Shown here: piece after piece, positions 1-22,235 of the stretch
Layout: the number at the start of each line of letters is the position of its first letter
How positions within the stretch are numbered: position 1 is the stretch's first letter
Assembly (NCBI GenBank): GCA_963696585.1
Contig: CAVOKW010000035.1
Location: 77,682 to 141,681 of the forward strand
Reading direction: 5' to 3'
Source: an uncultured Alphaproteobacteria bacterium
GTDB lineage: Bacteria; Pseudomonadota; Alphaproteobacteria; Parvibaculales; Parvibaculaceae
Length of the DNA: 64,000 bases
Translations under genes and position numbers: made by a program
Notes under the pieces: generated by a model
Seen by the model: the letters and a program-made list of their open reading frames with translations, nothing else
Databases searched by the model: none
What the model was told of the DNA's origin: nothing

Positions 1-732
1 ATTCTGATCCGACCGCAGCTTGGCGAAAATATCGGCACGGCCGCCCGCGCCATGGCCAATTTTGCGCTGGGTGACCTGCGGCTGGTGGCGCCGCGCGATG
101 GCTGGCCCAATCCGCGCGCCCGCTCGGCCTCGTCGGGGGCGGACTATATTCTCGACCATGTGAAGGTCTTTGACACGACGGCCGAGGCGATTGCCGATCT
201 TGACTATGTGATCGCCACAACGGCACGCGACCGGGAGCTTGTCAAAGTCATCATGACGCCGGAAACGGCGGCCGTGAAGCTGCGCGAGGTCTTGAACAGC
301 CAGCATAAGGCCGGGGTCATGTTCGGGCCGGAGCGGGCCGGGCTGCTCAATGATGATGTGGCGCTCACGGACGCCTCCATGATGGTGCCGGTCAATCCGG
401 CCTTTGCCTCGCTCAATCTCGCCCAGGCGGTTTTGCTGGTCGGTTATGAATGGTTCAAGACGGGTGACATGACCCCGCCCGAAAGGCTGGAGCTTGTTAA
501 ATCAATTCCGGCGACCAAGGGCGAGATTGTCGGCTTTTTCGATCATCTCGAAGCCGAACTTGACCGGCAGGGTTTTTTGCGGCCACCGGAAAAGCGCCCG
601 GTCATGATCCGCAACCTGCGCAATATCTTCCAGCGGGCCGCGTTGACGGATCAGGAAGTGCGCACGCTGCGCGGCGTTGTTTCGGCGCTGACGCGGCGCG
701 TGCCGCGCGGTCAGGGGCCGGAAGAAGACTAG
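1..732 (+). CDS. trmJ: TrmJ/LasT-family SPOUT RNA methyltransferase, 5'-truncated by window edge
   Basis: Frame open from base 1: ILIRPQLGENIGTAARAMANF...; MFGPERAGLLN and VNPAFASLNLAQAV SPOUT motifs. Confidence 0.85.
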   Translation: MLIRPQLGENIGTAARAMANFALGDLRLVAPRDGWPNPRARSASSGADYILDHVKVFDTTAEAIADLDYVIATTARDRELVKVIMTPETAAVKLREVLNSQHKAGVMFGPERAGLLNDDVALTDASMMVPVNPAFASLNLAQAVLLVGYEWFKTGDMTPPERLELVKSIPATKGEIVGFFDHLEAELDRQGFLRPPEKRPVMIRNLRNIFQRAALTDQEVRTLRGVVSALTRRVPRGQGPEED

Positions 733-761
733 GCGTGTAATTATCTGAGACTCGGCCCACC

Positions 762-1424
762 TTAGGTTCCTGAATTGTGGGTCGAGTCTTGTCGTGAAAG
801 TCGGGCATTCTGGACAGCATTGAAACGGCTGAGATGCGCAGTCCAAGCTTGCGTGTGGGCGCACATCCATCCGATGGCTTCGATGATCTCGTCATGCATC
901 TGCATCGCGGAGTCGAAGATGGGTTCGTGATGGGCGACGCGATTTCTGAACCGGCGAATGGCGTTGAAGCGACCGTGCACGAAGGAGCGTTTTTTGCCGC
1001 CGCCCGTCAGGAAGCCTTTATAGATTATTTTACGCCAAAGCGTGTCGTCATAACCTGTTCCCAACAGGCTGACCCAAAACGAAAATTTCAATTCCGCGAC
1101 AATATCGCCAGGGATTGGTTGGCGCAGCTTTCTTAATGCATCTTCGATTGCAGCTTTGGCAGTCGCATTAAGTGGCGCTGTGCCATTTGTCAGCCAATCA
1201 CTGCCATATGCCTGAGACATTCTTTCGTGCAGCGAGTTTCGGAAGCATATTTCGAGGCTCTGGAGTGGCGTATACAGGGCTTCTGAAAGTTGCGTGTTAT
1301 GTTCGTAAAGGCTGAGGGCTGCGTCCAGATTGTTGCCAGTTGCAGTCAGATATTTTGTAAGGCGCTCGCGTGAAACGGTCTTTTCGAGAGCTTTGTTAGC
1401 AACTTCGGTTCTCAATATTTTCAC
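762..1424 (-). CDS. Abi_2/AbiF-like HEPN-domain protein
   Basis: SRERLTKY...ALYTPLQSLEICFRN N-terminal signature and RNRVAH (RxxxxH) HEPN motif; visibly more AT-rich than flanks; GTG start uncertain. Confidence 0.8.
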   Translation of the reverse strand: MKILRTEVANKALEKTVSRERLTKYLTATGNNLDAALSLYEHNTQLSEALYTPLQSLEICFRNSLHERMSQAYGSDWLTNGTAPLNATAKAAIEDALRKLRQPIPGDIVAELKFSFWVSLLGTGYDDTLWRKIIYKGFLTGGGKKRSFVHGRFNAIRRFRNRVAHHEPIFDSAMQMHDEIIEAIGWMCAHTQAWTAHLSRFNAVQNARLSRQDSTHNSGT

Positions 1425-1462
1425 TTGCGATTAGGTGTTTACGTATTATCTTAGGCTCGTGC

Positions 1463-1528
1463 ACCCCGGGTCGGCCTCTGTCTCATGATATGCTCCCGGG
1501 GTCAGTCATTTGTGAGTACGAATGACTG
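1463..1528 (-). ncRNA. Candidate abiF-type structured RNA (two adjacent hairpins) upstream of the Abi gene
   Basis: Perfect 8-bp stems ACCCCGGG(1463-70)/CCCGGGGT(1495-1502) and CAGTCATT(1503-10)/AATGACTG(1521-28). Confidence 0.5.
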
Positions 1529-1589
1529 TTCATAGCACAATATCCATTTCATCTCTGGCTTCATGACCTAGTCGTCATTGCGCCTTTCA

Positions 1590-1618
1590 TTGACACGATG
1601 GCTTCACCCGTATAGAAA
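1590..1618 (+). promoter_or_regulatory. sigma70-type promoter for rpsD
   Basis: TTGACA at 1590-95, 17 nt, then TAGAAA (overlapping TATAGA at 1611). Confidence 0.55.
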
Positions 1619-1619
1619 C

Positions 1620-1786
1620 CGCGATTGAAACGGGTCTGTCCCTTGCGGCGGGCCCGATTTCATTTATCACGCACCCGCGGGACATTGGCTCTGCTTGAGC
1701 GGATTTCCCTGTCGGTTCAAAGGCTTAAACAAGCCGGAGGACAGAGGAGGGCGCGTTTCCTCTATTGATGACGTCAGGAAACCGCG
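1620..1786 (+). promoter_or_regulatory. Structured rpsD 5' leader with RBS-sequestering hairpin
   Basis: CGCGTTTCCT(1752-61) pairs with AGGAAACCGCG(1776-86) directly before ATG; further stems TGTCCC..GGGACA and GGCTT-AAAC-AAGCC. Confidence 0.45.
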
Positions 1787-2407
1787 ATGACAAAGCGCCA
1801 GGATGCGAAGTTCAAAATTGACCGCCGTATGGGTGAAAACCTGTGGGGCCGTCCCAAAAGCCCCATCAATCGCCGTGAATATGGCCCTGGCCAGCATGGT
1901 CAGCGCCGCAAGAGCAAGCTGTCGGATTTCGGCATCCAGCTCCGCGCCAAGCAGAAGCTGAAGGGCTATTACGGCAATATTTCCGAGAAGCAGTTCAAGG
2001 GCATCTACAAGGAAGCGGCACGTCTGCGTGGTGACACGGGCGAGCTGCTGATCGGCCTTCTGGAACGCCGTCTCGATGCGATCGTTTATCGCGCCAAGTT
2101 CGTGCAGACCGTTTTCGCGGCCCGCCAGTTCGTCAATCATGGCCATGTGCTGGTCAATGGCGAGCGCGTCAACATCTCCAGCTATCGCGTGAAGGATGGC
2201 GATGTCATCACGGTGCGCGAGAAGTCGCGCCAGATGACGGCTGTGCTTGAAGCCGCCCAGAGTGCCGAGCGCGATGTGCCGGATTATCTCGAAGTCGATC
2301 ATGAGAAGATGACGGCGAAGTTCGTGCGCACGCCCGCTTTCGGCGATGTGCCTTACCCGGTTCAGATGGAGCCCAACCTTGTCGTCGAATTCTACTCGCG
2401 CAGCTAA
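1787..2407 (+). CDS. rpsD: 30S ribosomal protein S4
   Basis: [43 protein letters not shown]. Confidence 0.99.
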
Positions 2408-2475
2408 CGCCGCGCGGACGGAAATTCTCCTCGCGCAGGCTAGTCCGCGTTGGCCTTTTATGGTCAGAAGAATGC

Positions 2476-2506
2476 AAGCCGCGGACCCTGTGTCCGCGGC
2501 TTTTTT
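2476..2506 (+). terminator. Intrinsic terminator of rpsD
   Basis: AAGCCGCGGAC-cctgt-GTCCGCGGCTT followed by T run. Confidence 0.85.
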
Positions 2507-2612
2507 GTTGAACTGTCTTTGGGACAGGGCGAGAGCGTATCCCATGCCTGATGACAGCCATCTGGTCTTTGCGCTATAGCAGGCCCTGAAACTGACGCAG
2601 CGGAGCGAGCCC

Positions 2613-3023
2613 ATGTCCCAGCCCAAAAAAGAAAAACCCGTCCTGATTGAAGTCGGACCGGGTGAGCTGATCGACAAAATCACTATTCTGCGCATCAAGT
2701 CTGAACGCATGAGTGATGCGGCCAAGCTCGTCAATGTGCGCCATGAATTGAGTGTGCTGGATAAGTCGCGCAAGGAGAACCTGGAGGACAGCGCCGAGCT
2801 TCGCCGTCTGGAGGGGGAGCTCAAGGCAGTCAATGAAGCGCTCTGGGTGATTGAGGATGATATTCGTCAGTGTGAGGCGAATAAGGACTTCGGCCAGACA
2901 TTCATTGATCTGGCTCGCTCGGTCTATATGCAGAATGACAAGCGTGCGGTCTTGAAGAAGGAGATCAATCTCCTGACGGGCTCGTCGATTGTGGAAGAAA
3001 AATCCTACACCAAATTTGAATGA
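2613..3023 (+). CDS. DUF6165-like helical protein
   Basis: GELIDKITILRIK...VNEALWVIEDDIR...ARSVYMQNDKRA. Confidence 0.75.
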   Translation: MSQPKKEKPVLIEVGPGELIDKITILRIKSERMSDAAKLVNVRHELSVLDKSRKENLEDSAELRRLEGELKAVNEALWVIEDDIRQCEANKDFGQTFIDLARSVYMQNDKRAVLKKEINLLTGSSIVEEKSYTKFE

Positions 3024-3027
3024 TGGC

Positions 3028-3981
3028 TCACGTGCGGGCGAGGAGCTTGCAGGCTTCTTCATGGACCTTATCGACCGTCAGATCCTGCATGCCGTTTTCG
3101 CCATCATAACCATCGCCCGTTTCGGCGATAATGTCTGCCAGAGGACGGCCTCGCACGCTCGTACATTTTTCGCCCCAAGGATCATAAAGATGATCAGCTG
3201 TGGGGCCAAAGAGACCGAGTGTGGGGACGCCTGCGGCTGCTGCCAGATGCATGAGCCCGGAGTCGTTGCCAATATAGAGGCGACAGCGTTCCAAGGCTGC
3301 GGCGACGAGGGGCAATGCACCGCTTTCCGGTCCGTCCCTGTCAATCATGATGATCTGACGTTCTTTGGGGATCGCCTTAAAAAGGGGTTCGCAGAATTTG
3401 CGTTCATCAGGACCTGCCGTGATCAGCACATAGGCACCACTCAGCGGTCCCTTTGGGGCAGTCAGGCGCTGCACGGTTTCCACAAAGCGATCCAGTGGCC
3501 ACATTTTGCGCGCCCAGTTCGCGGTTGGGCCGACCGCCAGCACAATGCGCCCATCGGGTATGAGTTCAGCAGCCTGCTTGCGCGCCTCTTCGCCCGGCCA
3601 GACGCGCGGGGCAGGGGCCGGATCAAAATTGCCAACACTGGCATTATGCAGCACGCGATGTCGTTCATGGTCTGCGCGCAGCACATGGCGCTTCTTTGTC
3701 CAGAGAACCCAGGCTGTTGCAGAGCCACGCAAATCGACCACGAGATCCCAGCGCGTGAAAAAGGTTTCCTTGAGCAATTTGCGCCAGTGACCGGCGCGCT
3801 TTTCCTTGCGCATCGCGATGACCTTATCGACGCGCGGTGCATGCTCGAAAATGGGCACCACGACGGGCCCGCAGGCAATCGTGAAGCGGGCATCTGGATA
3901 GCGCTCCATGAGACCGGCGAGCAAACCGGTCGAGAGCACGGCGTCGCCGAGTCTGGTGGAGGTAATGAAGAGAATTTTCAT
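3028..3981 (-). CDS. Glycosyltransferase family 9 (heptosyltransferase-like)
   Basis: ITSTRLGDAVLS, IGNDSGLMHLAAA, PTLGLFGPT. Confidence 0.92.
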   Translation of the reverse strand: MKILFITSTRLGDAVLSTGLLAGLMERYPDARFTIACGPVVVPIFEHAPRVDKVIAMRKEKRAGHWRKLLKETFFTRWDLVVDLRGSATAWVLWTKKRHVLRADHERHRVLHNASVGNFDPAPAPRVWPGEEARKQAAELIPDGRIVLAVGPTANWARKMWPLDRFVETVQRLTAPKGPLSGAYVLITAGPDERKFCEPLFKAIPKERQIIMIDRDGPESGALPLVAAALERCRLYIGNDSGLMHLAAAAGVPTLGLFGPTADHLYDPWGEKCTSVRGRPLADIIAETGDGYDGENGMQDLTVDKVHEEACKLLART

Positions 3982-4017
3982 TGACTGGCGCGCTATCCCT
4001 GCCGTGTGTCGGCGAGC

Positions 4018-4362
4018 TTATTCAGCTGCCGCTTCTGCAGCAATGCCTTTTTCTGTCAGATAGTCACGGAGTTCACCCTGCTCGAACATTTCGCGCACGA
4101 TGTCGCAACCGCCAACAAACTCACCCTTCACATAAAGCTGGGGAATGGTCGGCCAATCGGAATATTCCTTGATGCCCTGACGGATGGCGTCGTCTTCCAG
4201 CACATTGATGCCTTTGAAGGGAACGTTGAGATAGGTCAGCACCTGCACGACCGCATTGGAAAAGCCGCATTGCGGGAAAACCGGCGTGCCCTTCATAAAC
4301 ACAACAATGTCGTTACCCTCGACTTCAGCGCGGATGCGGTCGAATACGGGATTGTCGCTCAT
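4018..4362 (-). CDS. grxD: Monothiol glutaredoxin Grx4, copy 1
   Basis: [13 protein letters not shown] and [18 protein letters not shown]; GAGGA RBS before ATG 4362. Confidence 0.97.
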
Positions 4363-4396
4363 GTTCAAAGTCCTCTGATTCTTTCTGGCCGCTGGC

Positions 4397-4630
4397 TCAT
4401 TCGGGGGCGGAGGTCTGGAGTGCCAGAGCGTGCAGCTCGGTCCCCATGCCGCCCTTGAGCGCGTTGTAAACCATCTGGTGCTGCTGCACCCTTGTCATGC
4501 CCTTGAAGGAGGCGGAAACCACGTTGGCGGCGTAATGGTCGCCATCGCCCGCCAGATCGCGGATTTCGATCACGGCATCAGGAATGGCCTGCTGAATCAG
4601 TTTCTCAATGTCAGAAGCTGTCATCGCCAT
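4397..4630 (-). CDS. bolA: BolA family protein, copy 1
   Basis: DLAGDGDHY...[12 protein letters not shown]...LHALAL. Confidence 0.96.
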
Positions 4631-4660
4631 GCCGGGTTACTCCCCTTCACATCCAGTCGA

Positions 4661-4805
4661 TCAAACTTCATGCGCCTGCGCCATATAGGCAGGCAGCCAA
4701 CCCTCATGCGCCATGCGCAGCCTCTCCAATGATATGGGAGAGGCCTTGCCAAGTGTCAATTGCTCACCGCCGGTGAGGCCGAGGAAGCGGGCCGGAACGC
4801 CCGCC
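4661..4805 (-). pseudogene. purL: 3'-terminal fragment of purL (last ~48 codons)
   Basis: Identical to 9836-9980, the end of intact purL. Confidence 0.93.
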
Positions 4806-4889
4806 CGCTTTCGGCGATGTGCCTTACCCGGTTCAGATGGAACCCAACCTTGTCGTCGAATTCTCCTCGCGCAGCTCGTGCCGCGCGGA
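4802..4889 (+). pseudogene. rpsD: Degenerate copy of rpsD 3' end
   Basis: Matches 2331-2418 (offset 2471) with GAG>GAA, TAC>TCC and TAAC>TCGT (stop lost). Confidence 0.93.
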
Positions 4890-4901
4890 GGCTATAACTG
4901 C

Positions 4902-4932
4902 AAAAGGCCCCGGAGCAATCCGGGGCCTTTTT
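4902..4932. terminator. Bidirectional intrinsic terminator
   Basis: AAAAGGCCCCGGA-gcaa-TCCGGGGCCTTTTT. Confidence 0.85.
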
Positions 4933-4992
4933 CATTGGGTCGACAGGGGGATGACAACCCAATGGGGGAGGGGGGTCATGCCGGATGGGCGA

Positions 4993-5646
4993 TCAGTGAA
5001 CGGTGACCCAGTGCGAGGCTTCCCCACCATTGGGACCCGATGTGGATTCCTGGTGTGTGACGCTTCCATCCTCGTTTTTCACCGTGCTTGTGTCATGCGT
5101 GGTAGTACCATTGGGGCCGGTATGCGTGATGCTGCGCGAGCAGCCGCTGCCCTGGGTGCAGCTACCATCAAGCGTGGTGCTGGCGCTATAGCCATTGGAG
5201 CCTGTCGTTTCGCGGCTGCGCGACCAGCTGCCATTGCCATTGTTGACAGCAGTGCCCGATGAAGTGGCTGACCCGTTGGGCCCTGTGTAAGTGGTCGATG
5301 AGCTGACAGATCCGTCGCCATTTGGCGTCACTTCGCGTTCACGCGAATAGGTGTTGCCGGAATTGGTTGTCGTGGTGCGCGTACTGGAGCAGCCTGCCCC
5401 ATCGCCGCAATTGCGATCATAAGTGCGGGTGCCGCCATAGCCGCCATTCGTCTGAATCTCGCGGCTGCGCGAGACGCTGCCGGGGGATCGCGAGACCGAG
5501 CCTGACCAACTGCCGCCGCGACCCGCAGCGCCAACGGCGGAACCACCGCGCGAGATGTCGCGCGCTTCGGCGTAATCGATGAAGAAACCCGTGGCAAGAC
5601 CGGCAAGAAGCGCCAATGTCCCGGTGAGAAGAATTGTCTTTTTCAT
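4993..5646 (-). CDS. Secreted Gly/Ser/Thr-rich beta-hairpin repeat protein
   Basis: Signal peptide MKKTILLTGTLALLAG...AEA; repeated (S/T)GPNG/NGDG turns; two Cx5C motifs; AGGAG RBS. Confidence 0.8.
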   Translation of the reverse strand: MKKTILLTGTLALLAGLATGFFIDYAEARDISRGGSAVGAAGRGGSWSGSVSRSPGSVSRSREIQTNGGYGGTRTYDRNCGDGAGCSSTRTTTTNSGNTYSREREVTPNGDGSVSSSTTYTGPNGSATSSGTAVNNGNGSWSRSRETTGSNGYSASTTLDGSCTQGSGCSRSITHTGPNGTTTHDTSTVKNEDGSVTHQESTSGPNGGEASHWVTVH

Positions 5647-5680
5647 GATGAAGCTCCTATTGGAAATGGGGGGGAAGGGA

Positions 5681-5995
5681 TTAGCGGCGCAGGCCCTTGA
5701 ATGTGTCGCGAAGTTCGGCGCGTGTGATCTGTCCGTCGCCGTTTCCATCCAGCCGGCTGAGTTCAGCCAGACGTGCATCCGTGAATTCGGTCTTGGTGAG
5801 TTGGCCGTCCCTGTTGGCGTCCATCTTGTCGAATTGCCCTTCGAGAGCATGCTGGGCTTCAAGAGAGGCAATCGCTCCGTCATGATTGGAGTCGAGATCA
5901 AGGATACCGAAGGCGAGGGCTGGTGCCGCAAAGGCGACAAACAACAGGCTGGCAGCGATGGGCAGAGCAACTTTCAGAGAAGCACTTTTCGTCAT
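5681..5995 (-). CDS. Secreted EF-hand protein
   Basis: Signal peptide; DSNHDGAI, DANRDGQLTKTE, DGNGDGQITRAE loops; GGAG RBS. Confidence 0.88.
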   Translation of the reverse strand: MTKSASLKVALPIAASLLFVAFAAPALAFGILDLDSNHDGAIASLEAQHALEGQFDKMDANRDGQLTKTEFTDARLAELSRLDGNGDGQITRAELRDTFKGLRR

Positions 5996-6135
5996 GTGAC
6001 TGGCTCCGGTCAGTGTCGTTGGTGGCACGAGGAGATTAAACGGCAGGCAGCGCCTGCCGATTGCGGGGTTGTTTCGGCATGTAACATTATGTAACGGGCC
6101 TTGAGATAAGTCGGCGGCGATGACAAAAATGCACA

Positions 6136-6858
6136 ATGAACAAGGAAGCAGCCGTTTTTCATATCCTGATCGTCGAGGACGACCGCGAGATTGGCGATCT
6201 GGTGCTTGATCTTTTGACCCGTGAGGGCTTCGCTGCCCGGCTGGCGCGCTCTGGCGCGGAAATGGATCAATTGATGATGCAGGAGGCGGTCGATCTGGTG
6301 GTGCTTGATCTGATGCTTCCGGGTGAAGATGGCATATCGATCTGTCGGCGGTTACGGTCGCGCAGCGCCCTTCCCATCATCATGCTGACGGCAAAGGGTG
6401 ATGATATTGACCGCATCATTGGCCTCGAAATCGGCGCCGACGATTATATGGGCAAACCGTTCAATCCGCGTGAGCTGCTGGCGCGGATCCGCTCGGTGTT
6501 GCGACGGACCGCGCAGACAGCCAGACTCGATGTCGTCGGTTCGGAGCGGCGGCATTTTGCGGGCTACATATTTGACGTCGAGGCGCGTCGGCTCATACGG
6601 GATGGCGTGGAAATCGAATTATCGACGGGCGATTATGATCTTCTGCTTGCCTTGACAGCCAATCCGCGCCGCCTGCTCACACGCGACCAATTGATGGACA
6701 TGACCAAGGGGCGCAGCTGGGAGGCTTTTGATCGTTCCATCGATGTGGCCCTGTCGCGGCTCCGGCGCAAGATCGAAACGGACTCGGCGCAACCGGCCCT
6801 GATCAAGACCATCCGCAATGCCGGATACATGTTGACCGTGCCGGTGGAACGGGTATGA
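6136..6858 (+). CDS. OmpR-family response regulator
   Basis: VEDD, LDLMLP, GADDYMGKPF, RSIDVALSRLRRK, IKTIRNAGY. Confidence 0.96.
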   Translation: MNKEAAVFHILIVEDDREIGDLVLDLLTREGFAARLARSGAEMDQLMMQEAVDLVVLDLMLPGEDGISICRRLRSRSALPIIMLTAKGDDIDRIIGLEIGADDYMGKPFNPRELLARIRSVLRRTAQTARLDVVGSERRHFAGYIFDVEARRLIRDGVEIELSTGDYDLLLALTANPRRLLTRDQLMDMTKGRSWEAFDRSIDVALSRLRRKIETDSAQPALIKTIRNAGYMLTVPVERV

Positions 6859-8246
6859 GCGGGCTGCGCAGCCTCACCTTGCGCATCTGTCTTATCCTGG
6901 CGGGCGCGCTTTTCTTCATATTGCTCGCGATCTTTGTTGCGATTTACGTCCAGAACACGAATGCGTCCTATCGCGGATTTCGTCTGCCTCTTCCCGAGCA
7001 GATTTCCGCTATGGTCGAGTTTCTGGAATCGGCTTCGCCTGAAGAGCAGAATCTCTTTCTGCGTGCGGCCAATTCATCAAGCATGACCGTGCGCGTTGTG
7101 GCCAAGGCGCCTGACACGACCGAGACTGTCAGGCTTCCCAATGTGACGCGCCTGCTCACGAACTATCTCGACAAACTTGGCGGACGGCATGTCTATGCCA
7201 TGGTCGACATCGCCCATGGCCGCATAGGGGAGGGCGTGTCTGAAAGGGCTGGCGTGTTTTGGGCCATGCGGCCTGTCAGGTTGCTTGTTGAGCTGCGTGA
7301 TGGGCGCACGCTTGTGGTCGAAGTGACAGGCGAGCTGTTTGCCCGGCTGACAGGATTGCGTCTGGCGCTACTGGTCCTGATCGTCTCGATCATGATTGGC
7401 GGCATTTCGCTCTGGGCGGTGCAGCGCCAGATCAAGCCCTTGCGGCAACTGGCGCTGGCTGTTGATGTGTTTGGTGCGCAACTGGAAATCCCGCCCTTGC
7501 CGGATGAGGGCGCCAAGGAAGTGCGCCAGCTCATTGGTGCGATTGAAAGAATGCAAGCCAGAATTCGCGATCTCGTGAATGGCCGGACGCGCATTCTTGC
7601 CGCCATCGGACATGATCTTGGCACCTATCTGACACGGCTTCGGCTACGCGCCGAATTTATCGGCGATGCGCGGCAGCGCGAGAGCGCGATCCGCGACATT
7701 GAAGACATGCATGCGCTGATGGCAGATACGCTGACGCTGGCAAAACTTGAAAATGCGGGCGAGTTGATGACGCCAGTCGATCTTGGCGCCATTGTGCGAC
7801 GGCAAGTCGAGAGCCTTGCCAATGCAGGCGAACGGGTGACGCATGATCTGGATGAGGAGCCATGCCGGGTGATGGGACGCCCCGTTGCGCTGGGGCGGTT
7901 GGTCGGCAATCTGCTCTCCAACGCGCTCAAATATGGCAAGGCGGCTGAAGTCAGCCTGATGCGCGAGGGTCAGATCGTGCGGCTCATCGTAGCAGACAGG
8001 GGACCAGGCATACCGCCTGAGGAGCGTCAATCGGTTCTGGAACCGTTTTATCGGCGTGATGGGGCGCGCAATCTCGATACGGGCGGCTTTGGGCTCGGCC
8101 TTGCCATCGTCGCCGATATCGTTCAGCGCCATAATGGCCACATCGCCCTTATGGATCGCGAGGGCGGGGGGCTGATCGTGCGTGTCGATTTGCCATGCGC
8201 GCCGCCCGGGCGCGACGGCCAGTCCCCTGACGCCGCAACGGCATAG
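6855..8246 (+). CDS. EnvZ-like sensor histidine kinase
   Basis: Two TM segments, HAMP, IGHDLGTYLTRLRL H-box, NLLSNALKYG, DRGPGIP, GFGLGLAI; ATGA overlap with regulator. Confidence 0.95.
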   Translation: MSGLRSLTLRICLILAGALFFILLAIFVAIYVQNTNASYRGFRLPLPEQISAMVEFLESASPEEQNLFLRAANSSSMTVRVVAKAPDTTETVRLPNVTRLLTNYLDKLGGRHVYAMVDIAHGRIGEGVSERAGVFWAMRPVRLLVELRDGRTLVVEVTGELFARLTGLRLALLVLIVSIMIGGISLWAVQRQIKPLRQLALAVDVFGAQLEIPPLPDEGAKEVRQLIGAIERMQARIRDLVNGRTRILAAIGHDLGTYLTRLRLRAEFIGDARQRESAIRDIEDMHALMADTLTLAKLENAGELMTPVDLGAIVRRQVESLANAGERVTHDLDEEPCRVMGRPVALGRLVGNLLSNALKYGKAAEVSLMREGQIVRLIVADRGPGIPPEERQSVLEPFYRRDGARNLDTGGFGLGLAIVADIVQRHNGHIALMDREGGGLIVRVDLPCAPPGRDGQSPDAATA

Positions 8247-8263
8247 GCCTGCACCTCAAATGC

Positions 8264-8290
8264 AAAACCCCCCGGATTGATCCGGGGCCC
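8264..8290. terminator. Hairpin between convergent kinase and dioxygenase
   Basis: CCCCGGAT-tg-ATCCGGGG preceded by A run. Confidence 0.6.
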
Positions 8291-8379
8291 CTTGGTTGCG
8301 GGGCTCGTCAGTCCCCGCTTTCACTGAGGGTGAAAGGCCAGGCAGGCGATGCCATGCCGCAATATTTCTAAGTCGGGCA

Positions 8380-9183
8380 TCATGGCGAAAACGCGGGCGG
8401 GTAGTGACCGGCAGTTACAGTCAACATGCTCAGGGAACCCATGATGATGCCATCAACCGGAAAGGCGATGGCATCGTCATATCGCGTTGCGCCGAGCACA
8501 TAAAGCAATGGCAGATAGTGGTCGGGTGTTGGTGCGGAGAGCATGGCCGCTTCACCAAGCTGCTCGTAAGCGATCAATGGACCATGTTCGTGTTTGATGA
8601 TGCAGTTGCGCACGAAACTGTTGAAGCCTGAAGCCCAGTCGAAGGCGCTCGTCTCGCCCCGCCATTTCACAAGCGAAAGATTGTGCACGACATTGCCTGA
8701 TCCGATGATGAGTATGCCTTCATCGCGAAGCGGTGCCAGTCGCTTGCCGATCTCGTAGTGAAACGAAGCGGGCTTGGTGGCATCAATGCTGAGCTGAATG
8801 ACGGGTATGTCGGCAGCGGGAAAAGCGTGCAGCAGCACGGACCATGTGCCGTGATCGAGACCCCAGCTTTGATCGAGCACGACATCAAGCGGCTTGAGCA
8901 AATCGGCGACGCGCCTGGCAAGGGCCGGATCACCCGGTGCCGGATATTGCACATCGAAGAGTGCTTGTGGAAAGCGGCCAAAATCATGGATGGTGCGCGG
9001 CTGCGCCATCGCGGTGACGCCAGTGCCTTGCGTGTACCAATGCGCAGAGATGCAGAGAATGGCTTTGGGGCGGGGCAGGCTGGCGCCCAATGCAGCCCAG
9101 TGATCCGCATAGGGATTGGGCTCAATGGCATACATGGGACTGCCATGGCCGAAGAAAACGACAGGTTGTCGTGCTTCGGCCAT
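8380..9183 (-). CDS. ygiD: 4,5-DOPA extradiol dioxygenase (LigB/YgiD family)
   Basis: FFGHGSPM, ISAHW, WGLDHGTW, GSGNVVHNL, PTPDHYLPL. Confidence 0.92.
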   Translation of the reverse strand: MAEARQPVVFFGHGSPMYAIEPNPYADHWAALGASLPRPKAILCISAHWYTQGTGVTAMAQPRTIHDFGRFPQALFDVQYPAPGDPALARRVADLLKPLDVVLDQSWGLDHGTWSVLLHAFPAADIPVIQLSIDATKPASFHYEIGKRLAPLRDEGILIIGSGNVVHNLSLVKWRGETSAFDWASGFNSFVRNCIIKHEHGPLIAYEQLGEAAMLSAPTPDHYLPLLYVLGATRYDDAIAFPVDGIIMGSLSMLTVTAGHYPPAFSP

Positions 9184-9195
9184 GGTCAGGGATCC

Positions 9196-9537
9196 TTATT
9201 CGGCGGCTTGCGCGGTGATGCCTTTGGCGGCGAGATAGTCACGCAGTTCACCCTGCTCGAACATTTCGCGCACGATGTCACAACCGCCAACAAACTCACC
9301 CTTCACATAAAGCTGGGGAATGGTCGGCCAATCGGAATATTCCTTGATGCCCTGACGGATGGCGTCGTCTTCCAGCACATTGATGCCTTTGAAGGGGACG
9401 TTGAGATAGGTCAGCACCTGCACGACCGCATTGGAAAAGCCGCATTGCGGGAAAACCGGCGTGCCCTTCATAAACACAACAATGTCGTTACCCTCGACTT
9501 CAGCGCGGATGCGGTCGAATACGGGATTGTCGCTCAT
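9196..9537 (-). CDS. grxD: Monothiol glutaredoxin Grx4, copy 2
   Basis: Same protein as copy 1 except the C-terminal ~12 residues. Confidence 0.97.
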
Positions 9538-9980
9538 GTTCAAAGTCCTCTGATTCTTTCTGGCCGCTGGCTCATTCGGGGGCGGAGGTCTGGAGTGCCA
9601 GAGCGTGCAGCTCGGTCCCCATGCCGCCCTTGAGCGCGTTGTAAACCATCTGGTGCTGCTGCACCCTTGTCATGCCCTTGAAGGAGGCGGAAACCACGTT
9701 GGCGGCGTAATGGTCGCCATCGCCCGCCAGATCGCGGATTTCGATCACGGCATCAGGAATGGCCTGCTGAATCAGTTTCTCAATGTCAGAAGCTGTCATC
9801 GCCATGCCGGGTTACTCCCCTTCACATCCAGTCGATCAAACTTCATGCGCCTGCGCCATATAGGCAGGCAGCCAACCCTCATGCGCCATGCGCAGCCTCT
9901 CCAATGATATGGGAGAGGCCTTGCCAAGTGTCAATTGCTCACCGCCGGTGAGGCCGAGGAAGCGGGCCGGAACGCCCGCC
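9233..9980. repeat. Direct repeat copy 2
   Basis: See 4058-4805. Confidence 0.95.
9572..9805 (-). CDS. bolA: BolA family protein, copy 2
   Basis: Identical to copy 1. Confidence 0.96.
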
Positions 9981-12052
9981 TGTCCGGCGCGGGCGAGGAA
10001 ATGGCCCAATTGCGCCTCAGGCAGCGTCACGAGATAGCGCGCCTGATCTTCGCCAAAGCCCCAGGCATGGGCGGGCAGGGCCTCGCTCACCCCGATTGTG
10101 GCGCCGATCCGACCGGCCATGGCCATTTCAGCCAGCGCGACAAAGAGACCGCCATCGGAAAGGTCATGCACGGCCGTGACATTGCCCACCCGGATTTCCT
10201 GGCGGATGAAGTCGCCATTGCGGCGCTCGGTGGCCAGATCAACCGGCGGCGGCGAACCTTCTTCGCGGCGGCCGAGAATGTCGCGCAGATAAATGCTTTG
10301 ACCGAGATGGCCCTTGGTCTCGCCAATCAGCATGATGGCTTCGCCTTCCGCCTTGAAGGCGATGGTGGCGCGTGCGGTAACATCGGGCAGCAGGCCAACG
10401 GCGCCAATCGCGGGTGTTGGCAGAATGCCCTTGCCATTGGTTTCGTTATAGAGCGAGACATTGCCCGAAACGACAGGAAAGTCGAGGGCGCGACAGGCTT
10501 CGCCGATGCCCTGAATGCAGCCGACAAACTGGCCCATGATTTCCGGCTTTTCGGGATTGCCGAAATTGAGATTGTCGGTGATGGCGAGTGGTTCGGCACC
10601 AACGGCCGTCAGGTTGCGCCAGCATTCGGCCACAGCCTGCTTGCCGCCTTCGACAGGATCGGCCTGGCAATAGCGCGGCGTCACGTCGAGCGTGAAGGCA
10701 AGCGCCTTGGGACCATTACCAATGCGGATAACAGCGGCGTCGCCACCGGGGCCAATGGCCGTGTTGCCCTGAATGAGATTGTCATATTGCTCCCAGACCC
10801 AGCGGCGCGAGCACATGTCAGGCAAGGCGAGCATTTCAACGAGTGTCGCAGCGATGTCTTCGGGCGCAGGCACATTGGCGATGGCGAGCGCCTGGGGTTT
10901 GGCGGTTGCGATCCAGGGGCGGTCATATTCCGGGGCCTGATCGCCGAGTTCCTTGATCGGCAAATCGGCCATGACTTCGCCATGGCGTTTGACGCGGAAG
11001 CGCAGATCATCGGTTGTGAAACCGATGACCGCAAAATCGAGACCCCATTTCGTGAAAATGGCTTCGGCATCTTTCTCGCGTGTCGGGTCAAGAACCATGA
11101 GCATGCGCTCCTGGCTTTCCGACAGCATCATCTCGTAAGCCGTCATGCCGTCTTCGCGGCAGGGTACTTTGTCGAGGTCGAGTTCAACGCCGAGGTCGCC
11201 CTTGGCGCCCATCTCAACGGCGGAGCAGGTGAGGCCCGCGGCGCCCATGTCCTGAATGGCGATGACGGCACCTGAGGCCATCAGCTCCAGACAGGCTTCG
11301 AGCAATAGCTTTTCGGAGAAGGGATCGCCGATCTGGACGGTCGGGCGTTTTTCTTCCGTGTCGTGATCAAATTCGGCCGAAGCCATGGTCGCGCCATGAA
11401 TACCGTCGCGGCCTGTCTTGGAGCCGAGATAGACGATGGGCAAGCCGACGCCCTTGGCCTGCGAATAGAAAATCTTGTCAGTGTCGGCAAGGCCCGCCGC
11501 AAAAGCGTTCACAAGGCAGTTGCCATTATAGCTCGGGTCAAAATTGACCTCGCCGCCCACGGTTGGCACGCCGAAGGAATTGCCATAGCCGCCGACGCCT
11601 GCCACCACGCCTGAAACGATGTGCCGGGTTCGCGGGTGGCCGGGTTCGCCAAAGCGCAAGGCATTCAAGGCGGCGATGGGACGCGCGCCCATGGTGAAAA
11701 CGTCGCGCAGAATGCCGCCAACGCCTGTCGCCGCGCCCTGATGCGGTTCGATATAGGAGGGGTGGTTGTGGCTTTCCATCTTGAAGATGATGGCCTGACC
11801 GTCACCAATATCGACAACACCGGCATTCTCGCCAGGGCCGCAAATGACGCGCTCGCCGGTTGTCGGCAGGGTGCGCAGCCATTTCTTGGATGACTTGTAA
11901 GAGCAATGCTCGTTCCACATGGCCGAGAAAATGCCCAACTCGGTAAGCGTTGGCTCGCGGCCAATCAGATCGAGAATGCGCTGATATTCGTCGGGCTTCA
12001 GACCATGCTCGGCAACGAGTTCAGGGGTAATGGTTACATCGTTGCGGATCAC
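9836..12052 (-). CDS. purL: Phosphoribosylformylglycinamidine synthase subunit PurL
   Basis: [45 protein letters not shown]. Confidence 0.99.
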
Positions 12053-22148: not shown

Positions 22149-22235
22149 GGCCCCTTGGCGAAACTGGTATACGCAGCAGACTTAAAATCTGCTTCTCGCA
22201 AGGGAGTGCGGGTTCGAGTCCCGCAGGGGCCACCA
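22149..22235 (+). tRNA. tRNA-Leu(UAA)
   Basis: Acceptor GGCCCCT/AGGGGCC, anticodon arm GCAGA-CTTAAAA-TCTGC, long variable arm, GGTTCGAGTCCC, encoded CCA. Confidence 0.97.

Follow-up and report, generated by a model that had tools for sequence, protein, structure and literature searches.

A probable chromosomal tandem array with two different gene cassettes between rpsD and grxD in a Parvibaculaceae lineage

How does a chromosome come to carry two different gene cassettes, each beside its own copy of the same genes? The question is raised by a 64,000-nucleotide stretch of DNA from an uncultured alphaproteobacterium of the Parvibaculaceae (GenBank assembly GCA_963696585.1, contig CAVOKW010000035.1, positions 77,682 to 141,681; hereafter the window), in which a direct repeat of grxD, bolA and the end of purL brackets a set of accessory genes. 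A preliminary description of this DNA, made from its letters, proposed that the genome holds two alleles of one replaceable slot between rpsD and grxD. Our results support a model in which the locus is a real chromosomal tandem array, that is, a stable merodiploid, which is found throughout the lineage and carries imported cargo in one of its units. We put the probability of this reading at roughly 80%.

The array consists of two units. Unit 1 (2471 bp) holds the rpsD 3' end, a short segment X, the genes for a DUF6165 protein and a family 9 glycosyltransferase (GT9), grxD, bolA and the end of purL (purL'); unit 2 (5175 bp) holds the end of rpsD ('rpsD), a terminator, genes for a 217-aa protein, an EF-hand protein, a response regulator (RR), a histidine kinase (HK) and a LigB-family dioxygenase, then grxD, bolA and the intact purL. 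We refer to DUF6165 and GT9 as cassette A and to the genes from the 217-aa protein to LigB as cassette B. Open reading frames (ORFs) taken as genes between positions 52 and 12052 were scanned against Pfam, ten of them also against NCBIfam, and public gene calls were used as well; these bear out the gene order given in the preliminary description. The features are listed below, with relatives and contigs denoted by L-numbers; L101 and L103 are the nearest relatives.

1787 to 2407, plus strand: rpsD (30S protein S4), the only complete copy (NCBIfam NF003717, E = 1.6e-81)
2327 to 2418, plus strand: rpsD 3'-end repeat, copy 1, the functional end plus 11 nt after the stop
2420 to 2569, plus strand: segment X, opening with a degenerate repetition of the final rpsD codons (about 2421-2455) and including a rho-independent terminator hairpin (2476-2502)
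2613 to 3023, plus strand: DUF6165 protein, 136 aa, cassette A (Pfam PF19662)
3028 to 3981, minus strand: GT9, heptosyltransferase-like, 317 aa, cassette A (PF01075; 96% amino acid identity to L103)
4018 to 4362, minus strand: grxD1, Grx4-type monothiol glutaredoxin (TIGR00365), with its last ~12 codons and the GT9 spacer of L101/L103 type
4058 to 4805, no strand: repeat R, copy 1 (repeat comparison; twofold unitig depth)
4397 to 4630, minus strand: bolA1, identical to bolA2 (PF01722)
4661 to 4805, minus strand: purL', the last 48 codons without the 5' part (from translation)
4803 to 4806, no strand: the purL'::'rpsD joint, CGCC common to both parents (exact 41-mer in L003/L011, L012 and L013; unitigs of X6, X13 and X14)
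4798 to 4889, plus strand: 'rpsD fragment (3'-end repeat, copy 2), decayed, with Tyr>Ser and loss of the stop codon
4903 to 4931, no strand: terminator hairpin, bidirectional, separating 'rpsD from the 217-aa gene (RNAfold, -26.3 kcal/mol)
4993 to 5646, minus strand: 217-aa Ser/Gly/Thr-rich protein with an N-terminal hydrophobic stretch, cassette B (no Pfam match)
5681 to 5995, minus strand: EF-hand protein of 104 aa whose N-terminus has a hydrophobic, signal-like stretch, cassette B (PF13202, PF00036)
6136 to 6858, plus strand: OmpR-family RR, cassette B (Pfam/NCBIfam)
6855 to 8246, plus strand: EnvZ-like HAMP HK, cassette B (Pfam/NCBIfam)
8380 to 9183, minus strand: LigB-family 4,5-DOPA extradiol dioxygenase (YgiD-like), the cassette B gene nearest grxD (NF007914, E = 1.7e-116, passing the curated cutoff)
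9196 to 9537, minus strand: grxD2, whose last 43 residues, including the copy-specific C-terminus, are identical to the LigB-adjacent grxD of L108
9233 to 9980, no strand: repeat R, copy 2 (repeat comparison at offset 5175)
9572 to 9805, minus strand: bolA2 (from sequence)
9836 to 12052, minus strand: purL, the only complete copy (PF00586, PF02769, PF18072)

Both grxD and bolA are intact in each unit, and rpsD and purL are each complete once. GT9 lies 36 bp 3' of grxD1 and LigB 12 bp 3' of grxD2, each on the strand of its respective grxD. The hairpin at 4903-4931 is the orthologue of the rpsD terminator in L101, L103 and L119 (97% match to L103).

Two direct repeats define the array. Repeat R spans 748-764 bp (copy 1, 4043/4058-4805; copy 2, 9218/9233-9980), with an offset of 5175 bp by a repeat search and a base-by-base register comparison, and it takes in the greater part of grxD, the whole of bolA and the final 145 bp (48 codons) of purL, each of these on the minus strand. 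Its copies are unrelated or diverged below 4043 and end on the right at 4805 and 9980. Within 4058-4805 they differ solely at 4069, 4105 and 4222, leaving 583 bases (4223-4805) without a mismatch, just as the preliminary description had stated for copies identical over about 580 bp and diverging only toward the slot; its 5175-bp unit was recovered as well. Given this length and identity, R cannot have arisen by chance. The second repeat, of 92 bp at 93% identity, comprises the last 80 bp of rpsD and 11 nt past the stop, and pairs 2327-2418 with 4798-4889 at a spacing of 2471 bp. R and this repeat abut at the purL'::'rpsD joint, where both parents have a 4-bp microhomology (CGCC) that belongs to an imperfect ACGCCCGC motif. 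The sequence of the purL parent is GGAACGCCCGCC followed by TGTCC, that of the rpsD parent GCGCACGCCCGC followed by TTTCGG, and that of the joint itself GGAACGCCCGCCCGCTTTCGG. Two descriptions of the array are equivalent: R brackets a unit of 5175 bp, and the rpsD ends bracket one of 2471 bp. In either description it shows the head-to-tail repetition, with one novel joint linking distal and proximal segment ends, that defines a tandem duplication. Because the 'rpsD fragment and the resident rpsD 3' end have derived bases in common relative to all relatives compared, and because purL' equals the resident purL sequence, the joint connects a native purL 3' region to a native rpsD 3' end.

The rpsD end also has a smaller irregularity. 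Past the stop codon, a tandem unit of about 34 nt (2387-2455; GAATTCTACTCGCGCAGCTAA... then GAAATTCTCCTCGCGCAGGCTAG...) forms a degenerate repeat of the last rpsD codons and spacer. It is also present in L116 (about 7939-8005) and is missing from the copy-2 fragment, L101, L103, L107 and L119; it may record a rearrangement that this end of rpsD went through earlier.

Is the array real? The preliminary description had named misassembly of two strains as the outcome that would undo it, and we reject such a chimera. Exact-protein look-ups showed these genes to be present in many public assemblies, and an exact 41-mer across the joint was found in three independent ones: JGI 3300027851 (L003/L011), ENA ERZ27247451 (L012) and the NCBI metagenome-assembled genome (MAG) GCA_049663905.1 (L013). 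Logan unitigs cross the joint in runs X6, X13 and X14, so that at least three independent assemblies and several Logan run graphs contain it, and a strain mixture cannot make a joint from a 4-bp overlap, which is far below k. Moreover, in six metagenomes from six different samples the unitig depth of R is about twice that of cassette A, cassette B and purL.

X1: A 20.6, R 36.4, B 15.4
X6: A 14.7, R 31.3, B 18.4
X8: A 29.3, R 54.4, B 29.8
X15: A 8.1, R 14.3, B 6-7.6
X9: A 13.6, R 30-40, B 16-19
X11: A 26-34, R 70.9, B 27.9

Averaged over the six, the A:B ratio is about 1:1 (A:B:flank about 1:1:1), with single runs at 0.8-1.3; in X1, B has about 75% of the depth of A, a difference no larger than noise. 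The strains in these metagenomes differ by about 0.2% from the window and have the identical joint.

These data also bear on the idea that the tandem layout is an assembly inference and that the truth is an A-only chromosome accompanied by a free 5175-bp circle of R plus B, or a mixture of strains. A short-read graph cannot separate a loop traversed once from a chromosome with a circle, and contigs L001, L002 and L005 pass R straight into cassette A, with B on separate contigs ending in R. Nonetheless, Pfam and NCBIfam scans found no replication or partition function encoded in the 5.2-kb unit, and the even depth of A, B and flank, the inability of a strain mixture to create the joint, and the identity of that joint among diverged strains all argue against this idea, which we regard as very unlikely. 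B contigs that end in R coexist with A-only contigs in the same assemblies (L013 beside L001 in GCA_049663905.1; L016 beside L005 in JGI 3300018412), and the joint-bearing B contig L012 comes from ERZ27247451, a related sample. Faced with such a loop, an assembler would be expected to give an A-only-looking contig together with an orphan B contig in one assembly, and we do not accept L001, L002 and L005 as proof of deletion derivatives. L003/L011 and the window do show the tandem layout, but the 748-bp exact repeat is resolvable there solely by graph logic.

Further contigs were also considered. A contig of X12 joins the rpsD body to the B-side rpsD end, as an unduplicated B-only strain would; we reject it because the rpsD ends have a 40-bp identical stretch, longer than k = 31, and because X12 has coverage gaps on the competing edges. 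A similar piece in X20 is the true rpsD end placed on the fragment. The X19 contig running from LigB through R into purL is likewise rejected as physical linkage, its mean depth fitting a collapsed twofold R whose side edges were lost. The preliminary description had suggested that recombination between the repeats could excise the 5175-bp unit; this is possible in principle, and the repeats do exchange sequence (see below). No deletion, excised or circle form was reported in any run, although assembled contigs drop rare variants and absence is not implied; the A:B depth is about 1:1.

If the array is real, which of its cassettes came from elsewhere? Between the window and L103, nucleotide identity is 82-84% for core genes (purL/purQ; 61-65% at third positions) and 69-73% for the two-component module of cassette B, but 97.8% for DUF6165 (93% at third positions) and 92.6% for GT9 (82%). 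Between L101 and L103, the corresponding values are about 89-90% for the core (bolA 95%), 79-83% for the two-component module, 89.8% for DUF6165 and about 77% for GT9. Because DUF6165 and GT9 of the window are far closer to L103 than the core genes are, the cassette A cargo, together with the 3' end of grxD1, is on these distances best taken as an import from a sister lineage. The window DUF6165 is 89.5% identical to that of L101, nearly the 89.8% between L103 and L101; this is the core distance of L101 from L103, not that of the window from L101. The window DUF6165 thus nests with L103, and this favours a transfer out of the L103 clade and into the lineage of the window. An alignment puts the right-hand recombination breakpoint within grxD, near 4050-4058: the final ~12 grxD1 codons and the GT9 spacer are of L101/L103 type and the end of grxD2 is of the LigB-linked type, while upstream of about 4058 both grxD copies carry window-lineage sequence. 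A cassette closer to another lineage than the core is, with a breakpoint in a conserved flank, is the pattern of homologous allelic replacement. The 'rpsD fragment, with the conserved Tyr and the stop codon gone, has accumulated ~5 private changes in 92 bp. This is comparable in magnitude with the neutral distance between cassette A and L103; the duplication may therefore be about as old as the import, although the counts are small.

GT9 itself is variable. In L101 and L103, where it occupies 10001-10954 in both, the gene is only 77% identical at the nucleotide level, and the window GT9 is a mosaic relative to L103, with 88-99% identity along the gene. It appears to be a diversifying, often exchanged allele.

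Cassette B, conversely, looks vertically inherited and resident, since the divergence of its two-component module is proportional to that of the core in both comparisons (the module diverging about 1.7-1.8 times as fast as core genes for window-L103 and for L101-L103). This result disfavours the second of the two origins offered in the preliminary description, integration of a circle from a relative. In such a Campbell-type event, a circularised 'rpsD-B-grxD-bolA-purL' molecule would enter an A-type chromosome by a crossover in grxD-bolA-purL; it would yield the observed order, A then B, by a crossover in the 760-bp repeat with no need for a recombinase. It would, however, make B foreign and A resident, the opposite of what the divergences show, with A anomalously near L103 and B core-proportional. 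Furthermore, an outgroup lineage has the B-type slot in single copy as the ancestral state, and both sides of the joint are of resident type where a circle should have left a donor-derived side. We regard this origin as very unlikely.

The rpsD-grxD interval is a variable slot in relatives, as the synteny comparison proposed in the preliminary description made clear. We observed six states.

State (a): two-component module plus LigB, single copy (rpsD, terminator, 217-aa protein, EF-hand protein, RR, HK, LigB, grxD, bolA), in the 'Parvibaculum sp.' MAG lineage L119 plus L121 (core 81-85% amino acid identity to the window)
State (b): two-component module only, in L116
State (c): two-component module plus DUF6165-GT9, without LigB, unduplicated, in the nearest relatives L101 and L103 (core 88-92% amino acid identity)
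State (d): LigB only, in L105-L107
State (e): LigB plus a membrane protein, in L108
State (f): the tandem array, in the window

Unit 2 of the window is exactly state (a), including the orthologous terminator hairpin after rpsD. The idea of two alleles of a replaceable slot therefore holds in part: the middles differ in origin and the slot is variable, but the cassettes are not strict alternatives, as L101 and L103 combine GT9-DUF6165 with the two-component module in one slot. Because the place just downstream of grxD is occupied by GT9 or LigB in relatives, the real alternatives are these grxD-proximal occupants, GT9/DUF6165 versus LigB. All exact or near copies of the cassettes sit in this same slot; none was seen in another genomic context or as the same unit in an unrelated host. 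The synteny of rpsD with grxD-bolA-purL is old in Hyphomicrobiales. Among the matches listed from a scan of genome contigs with rpsD, only relatives at 81% identity or below were found (Rhodobacterales, Bradyrhizobium, Roseibium). The names borne by homologues group the organism with Parvibaculaceae-like alphaproteobacteria. GT9 homologues at 64-66% in Parvibaculum spp. lie at a different, non-mobile locus and are uninformative on the slot.

We also considered and rejected an integrase-driven genomic island or integrative element. As the preliminary description had noted, integrases and transposases are absent: the Pfam and NCBIfam scans found no integrase, recombinase or transposase domain in any ORF of either unit, there is no such gene beside the element, and no unit occurs in another context. 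The families detected over 52-12052 are only SpoU, Abi_2, S4, DUF6165, GT9, Grx, BolA, EF-hand, RR, HK, LigB and PurL. The array does resemble islands that integrate at gene 3' ends, in that the rpsD 3' end forms a direct repeat flanking an inserted block and the target gene stays intact. Unlike such islands, it has no integrase or excisionase, the other of its repeats, the grxD-bolA-purL' segment of 760 bp, consists of ordinary chromosomal DNA, and its joint is chromosomal on both sides.

The four genes of cassette B at 4993-8246 (217-aa Ser/Gly/Thr-rich protein, EF-hand protein, OmpR-type regulator and EnvZ-like kinase) form a module conserved beside rpsD across Parvibaculaceae-like lineages (L101, L103, L115, L116 and L119), which could be a calcium-responsive envelope sensing unit. 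A source search with the HK-LigB spacer found no match beyond the species itself.

How, then, did the array form? We propose that a microhomology-mediated illegitimate event produced two copies of the slot, either by spontaneous tandem duplication or by homology-anchored illegitimate insertion of incoming DNA, and that homologous exchange with DNA of an L103-like relative would have placed DUF6165-GT9 beside one grxD copy. Along the first route, a B-type slot would have been duplicated in tandem and the cargo of copy 1 then replaced homologously. Of the two origins in the preliminary description, this one, tandem duplication by microhomology followed by replacement of one middle, fits best with the microhomology joint, its native sequence on both sides, the grxD breakpoint and the different origins of the middles. 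Along the second route, a 2471-bp A unit from a conspecific A-type donor would have been inserted in one homology-anchored illegitimate step. Our reading takes in either order of events, and present data fit both routes.

The one-step route is a variant of the tandem-array reading that differs only in the order of events, and we hold it as a tentative, minority possibility. It supposes that a B-type cell acquired, through transformation, a gene transfer agent or conjugation, a linear rpsD...X-DUF6165-GT9-grxD-bolA-purL' fragment of a conspecific A-type strain; rpsD homology would anchor the fragment and its free purL' end would join the resident rpsD 3' end at CGCC, with a gain of 2471 bp and no loss of resident DNA. 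The structure is equally readable as a 2471-bp insert flanked by 92-bp rpsD 3' repeats, the joint resembles illegitimate ends in being short and GC-rich, and one event is needed instead of two. The rpsD anchor is also highly conserved, while the HK beside DUF6165 in type-1 donors is only about 71% identical, which would make an ordinary double crossover from such a donor difficult. However, the route needs either a conspecific A-only donor, so that the two copies of R would be the same, or later complete conversion of the first copy, and no proven A-only genome was found among those compared. Nor does the copy-1 rpsD 3' end show a donor signature, since its derived bases are those of the fragment.

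Several observations weigh against the tandem array or its proposed history. No long read or read pair covers the whole repeat, and an A-only chromosome with one 5175-bp circle per cell gives the same de Bruijn graph; contigs L001, L002 and L005, which run from purL through R and A to rpsD unbroken, could be real B-less genomes and not an assembler's choice of path. The direction of transfer of cassette A rests on two reference relatives. Neither postulated intermediate, a B-B tandem or a conspecific A-only strain, was found among the genomes compared, and segment X (2420-2569; left breakpoint at 2420) has no match in any other lineage compared. In addition, a sigma-70 promoter scan gave nothing usable upstream of bolA1, that is, for bolA1-grxD1-GT9.

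Why would such an array be kept? Judging from position and strand, GT9 and LigB each probably rely on the position after grxD for transcription. Duplication of grxD-bolA would let a genome hold both, where a plain swap would lose one, and selection for both cargos would then stabilise a normally unstable arrangement. Positional retention of this kind is the likely reason that the array persists. Single-nucleotide polymorphisms (SNPs) between strains are mostly synonymous in both cassettes (synonymous:nonsynonymous, 6:4 in A and 14:2 in B), which argues that both are under purifying selection.

Strain variation within R indicates that its copies exchange sequence by gene conversion and evolve in concert. 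A nonsynonymous bolA polymorphism, N36S at 4524/9699, distinguishes strains and is always in both bolA copies of a strain; likewise, a change at 4686 is in both R copies of the strains that have it, and these appear as single unitigs of twofold depth. The alleles of the first R copy at 4069, 4105 and 4222 vary by strain from all specific to that copy (the window) to all like the second copy (L011), the pattern expected from conversion tracts with differing end points.

In kind, the array is an ordinary rearrangement, a tandem segmental duplication with a microhomology joint plus allelic import of one cassette; what is unusual is its small size, its heterogeneous cargo and its fixation across populations. 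Small bacterial tandem duplications are usually transient and rarely reach reference genomes. In Salmonella and E. coli, spontaneous tandem duplications are joined at microhomologies, consist of identical units and are typically lost without selection. The array is like them in its new joint between unrelated sites sharing a few bases, in the lack of a recombinase gene and in repeats that can recombine; it is unlike them in that its units differ in cargo, with one apparently imported, and are stably inherited. Homology-facilitated illegitimate recombination during DNA uptake has been described for Acinetobacter and pneumococcus, where the classical cases usually delete resident DNA. One homologous anchor and one short GC-rich microhomology joint would give the layout of the array in a single step. 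The array differs from the classical cases in that its flanks are duplicated, and any uptake or anchoring is conjectural here. Tandem duplications have been studied in PMC11111574.

A close parallel in arrangement is found in Streptococcus pneumoniae, in which 'lethal cassette' transformants are tandem-duplication merodiploids that keep both an intact and a cassette-replaced copy (PMC3784515). There, as here, head-to-tail units carry the original genes in one copy and the incoming cassette in the other, with duplicated flanks supplying the homology, and the arrangement is kept because both copies are needed, the same reasoning that we apply to retention of the array. The pneumococcal duplications, however, are 100-900 kb long, bordered by insertion sequence (IS) repeats, laboratory-made and unstable (PMC3784515), whereas the array has units of 2.5 and 5.2 kb, is joined at a 4-bp microhomology and has become fixed in all populations sampled from a wild lineage.

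More speculatively, the rpsD-grxD interval of Parvibaculaceae might be a recombinase-free cassette-exchange hotspot where new cargo is added rather than swapped, a view that we consider doubtful. One conserved flank would anchor the incoming DNA and microhomology would join its other end, which would duplicate the flanks; gene conversion would then keep the duplicated bolA-grxD identical, and the small rpsD-end relics (2421-2455 here, and that in L116) would be scars of earlier rounds. If general, this would offer a route to 'allele stacking' at hypervariable loci without the machinery of mobile elements.

The array is fixed across hydrocarbon, freshwater, sediment and soil populations, which suggests that a normally unstable structure has been stabilised. 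It offers a natural, datable example in which each copy has acquired unique and apparently selected cargo, and in which conflict between two occupants of what is probably one transcriptional position, downstream of grxD, would have been resolved by duplicating the position. It also illustrates gene conversion homogenising duplicated bolA-grxD copies. In practical terms, the locus breaks or misleads short-read assemblers: with A-only-looking contigs and orphan B contigs within the same MAG, annotation and pangenome pipelines will miscount genes, and studies of gene content or synteny in such MAGs would misread the locus.

Two other features of the window were noted. A tRNA-Leu gene (anticodon TAA) at 22149-22235 on the plus strand is the sole Rfam or ARAGORN match in the 64 kb. 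An Abi_2-like gene of the abortive-infection family (220 aa; 762-1424, minus strand) lies between a SpoU methylase gene and rpsD, in a position that varies among strains: L001 has a gene of 144 aa there, L004 one of 100 aa, and L002 and L005 the Abi_2-like gene. This site is a second small variable spot adjoining rpsD.

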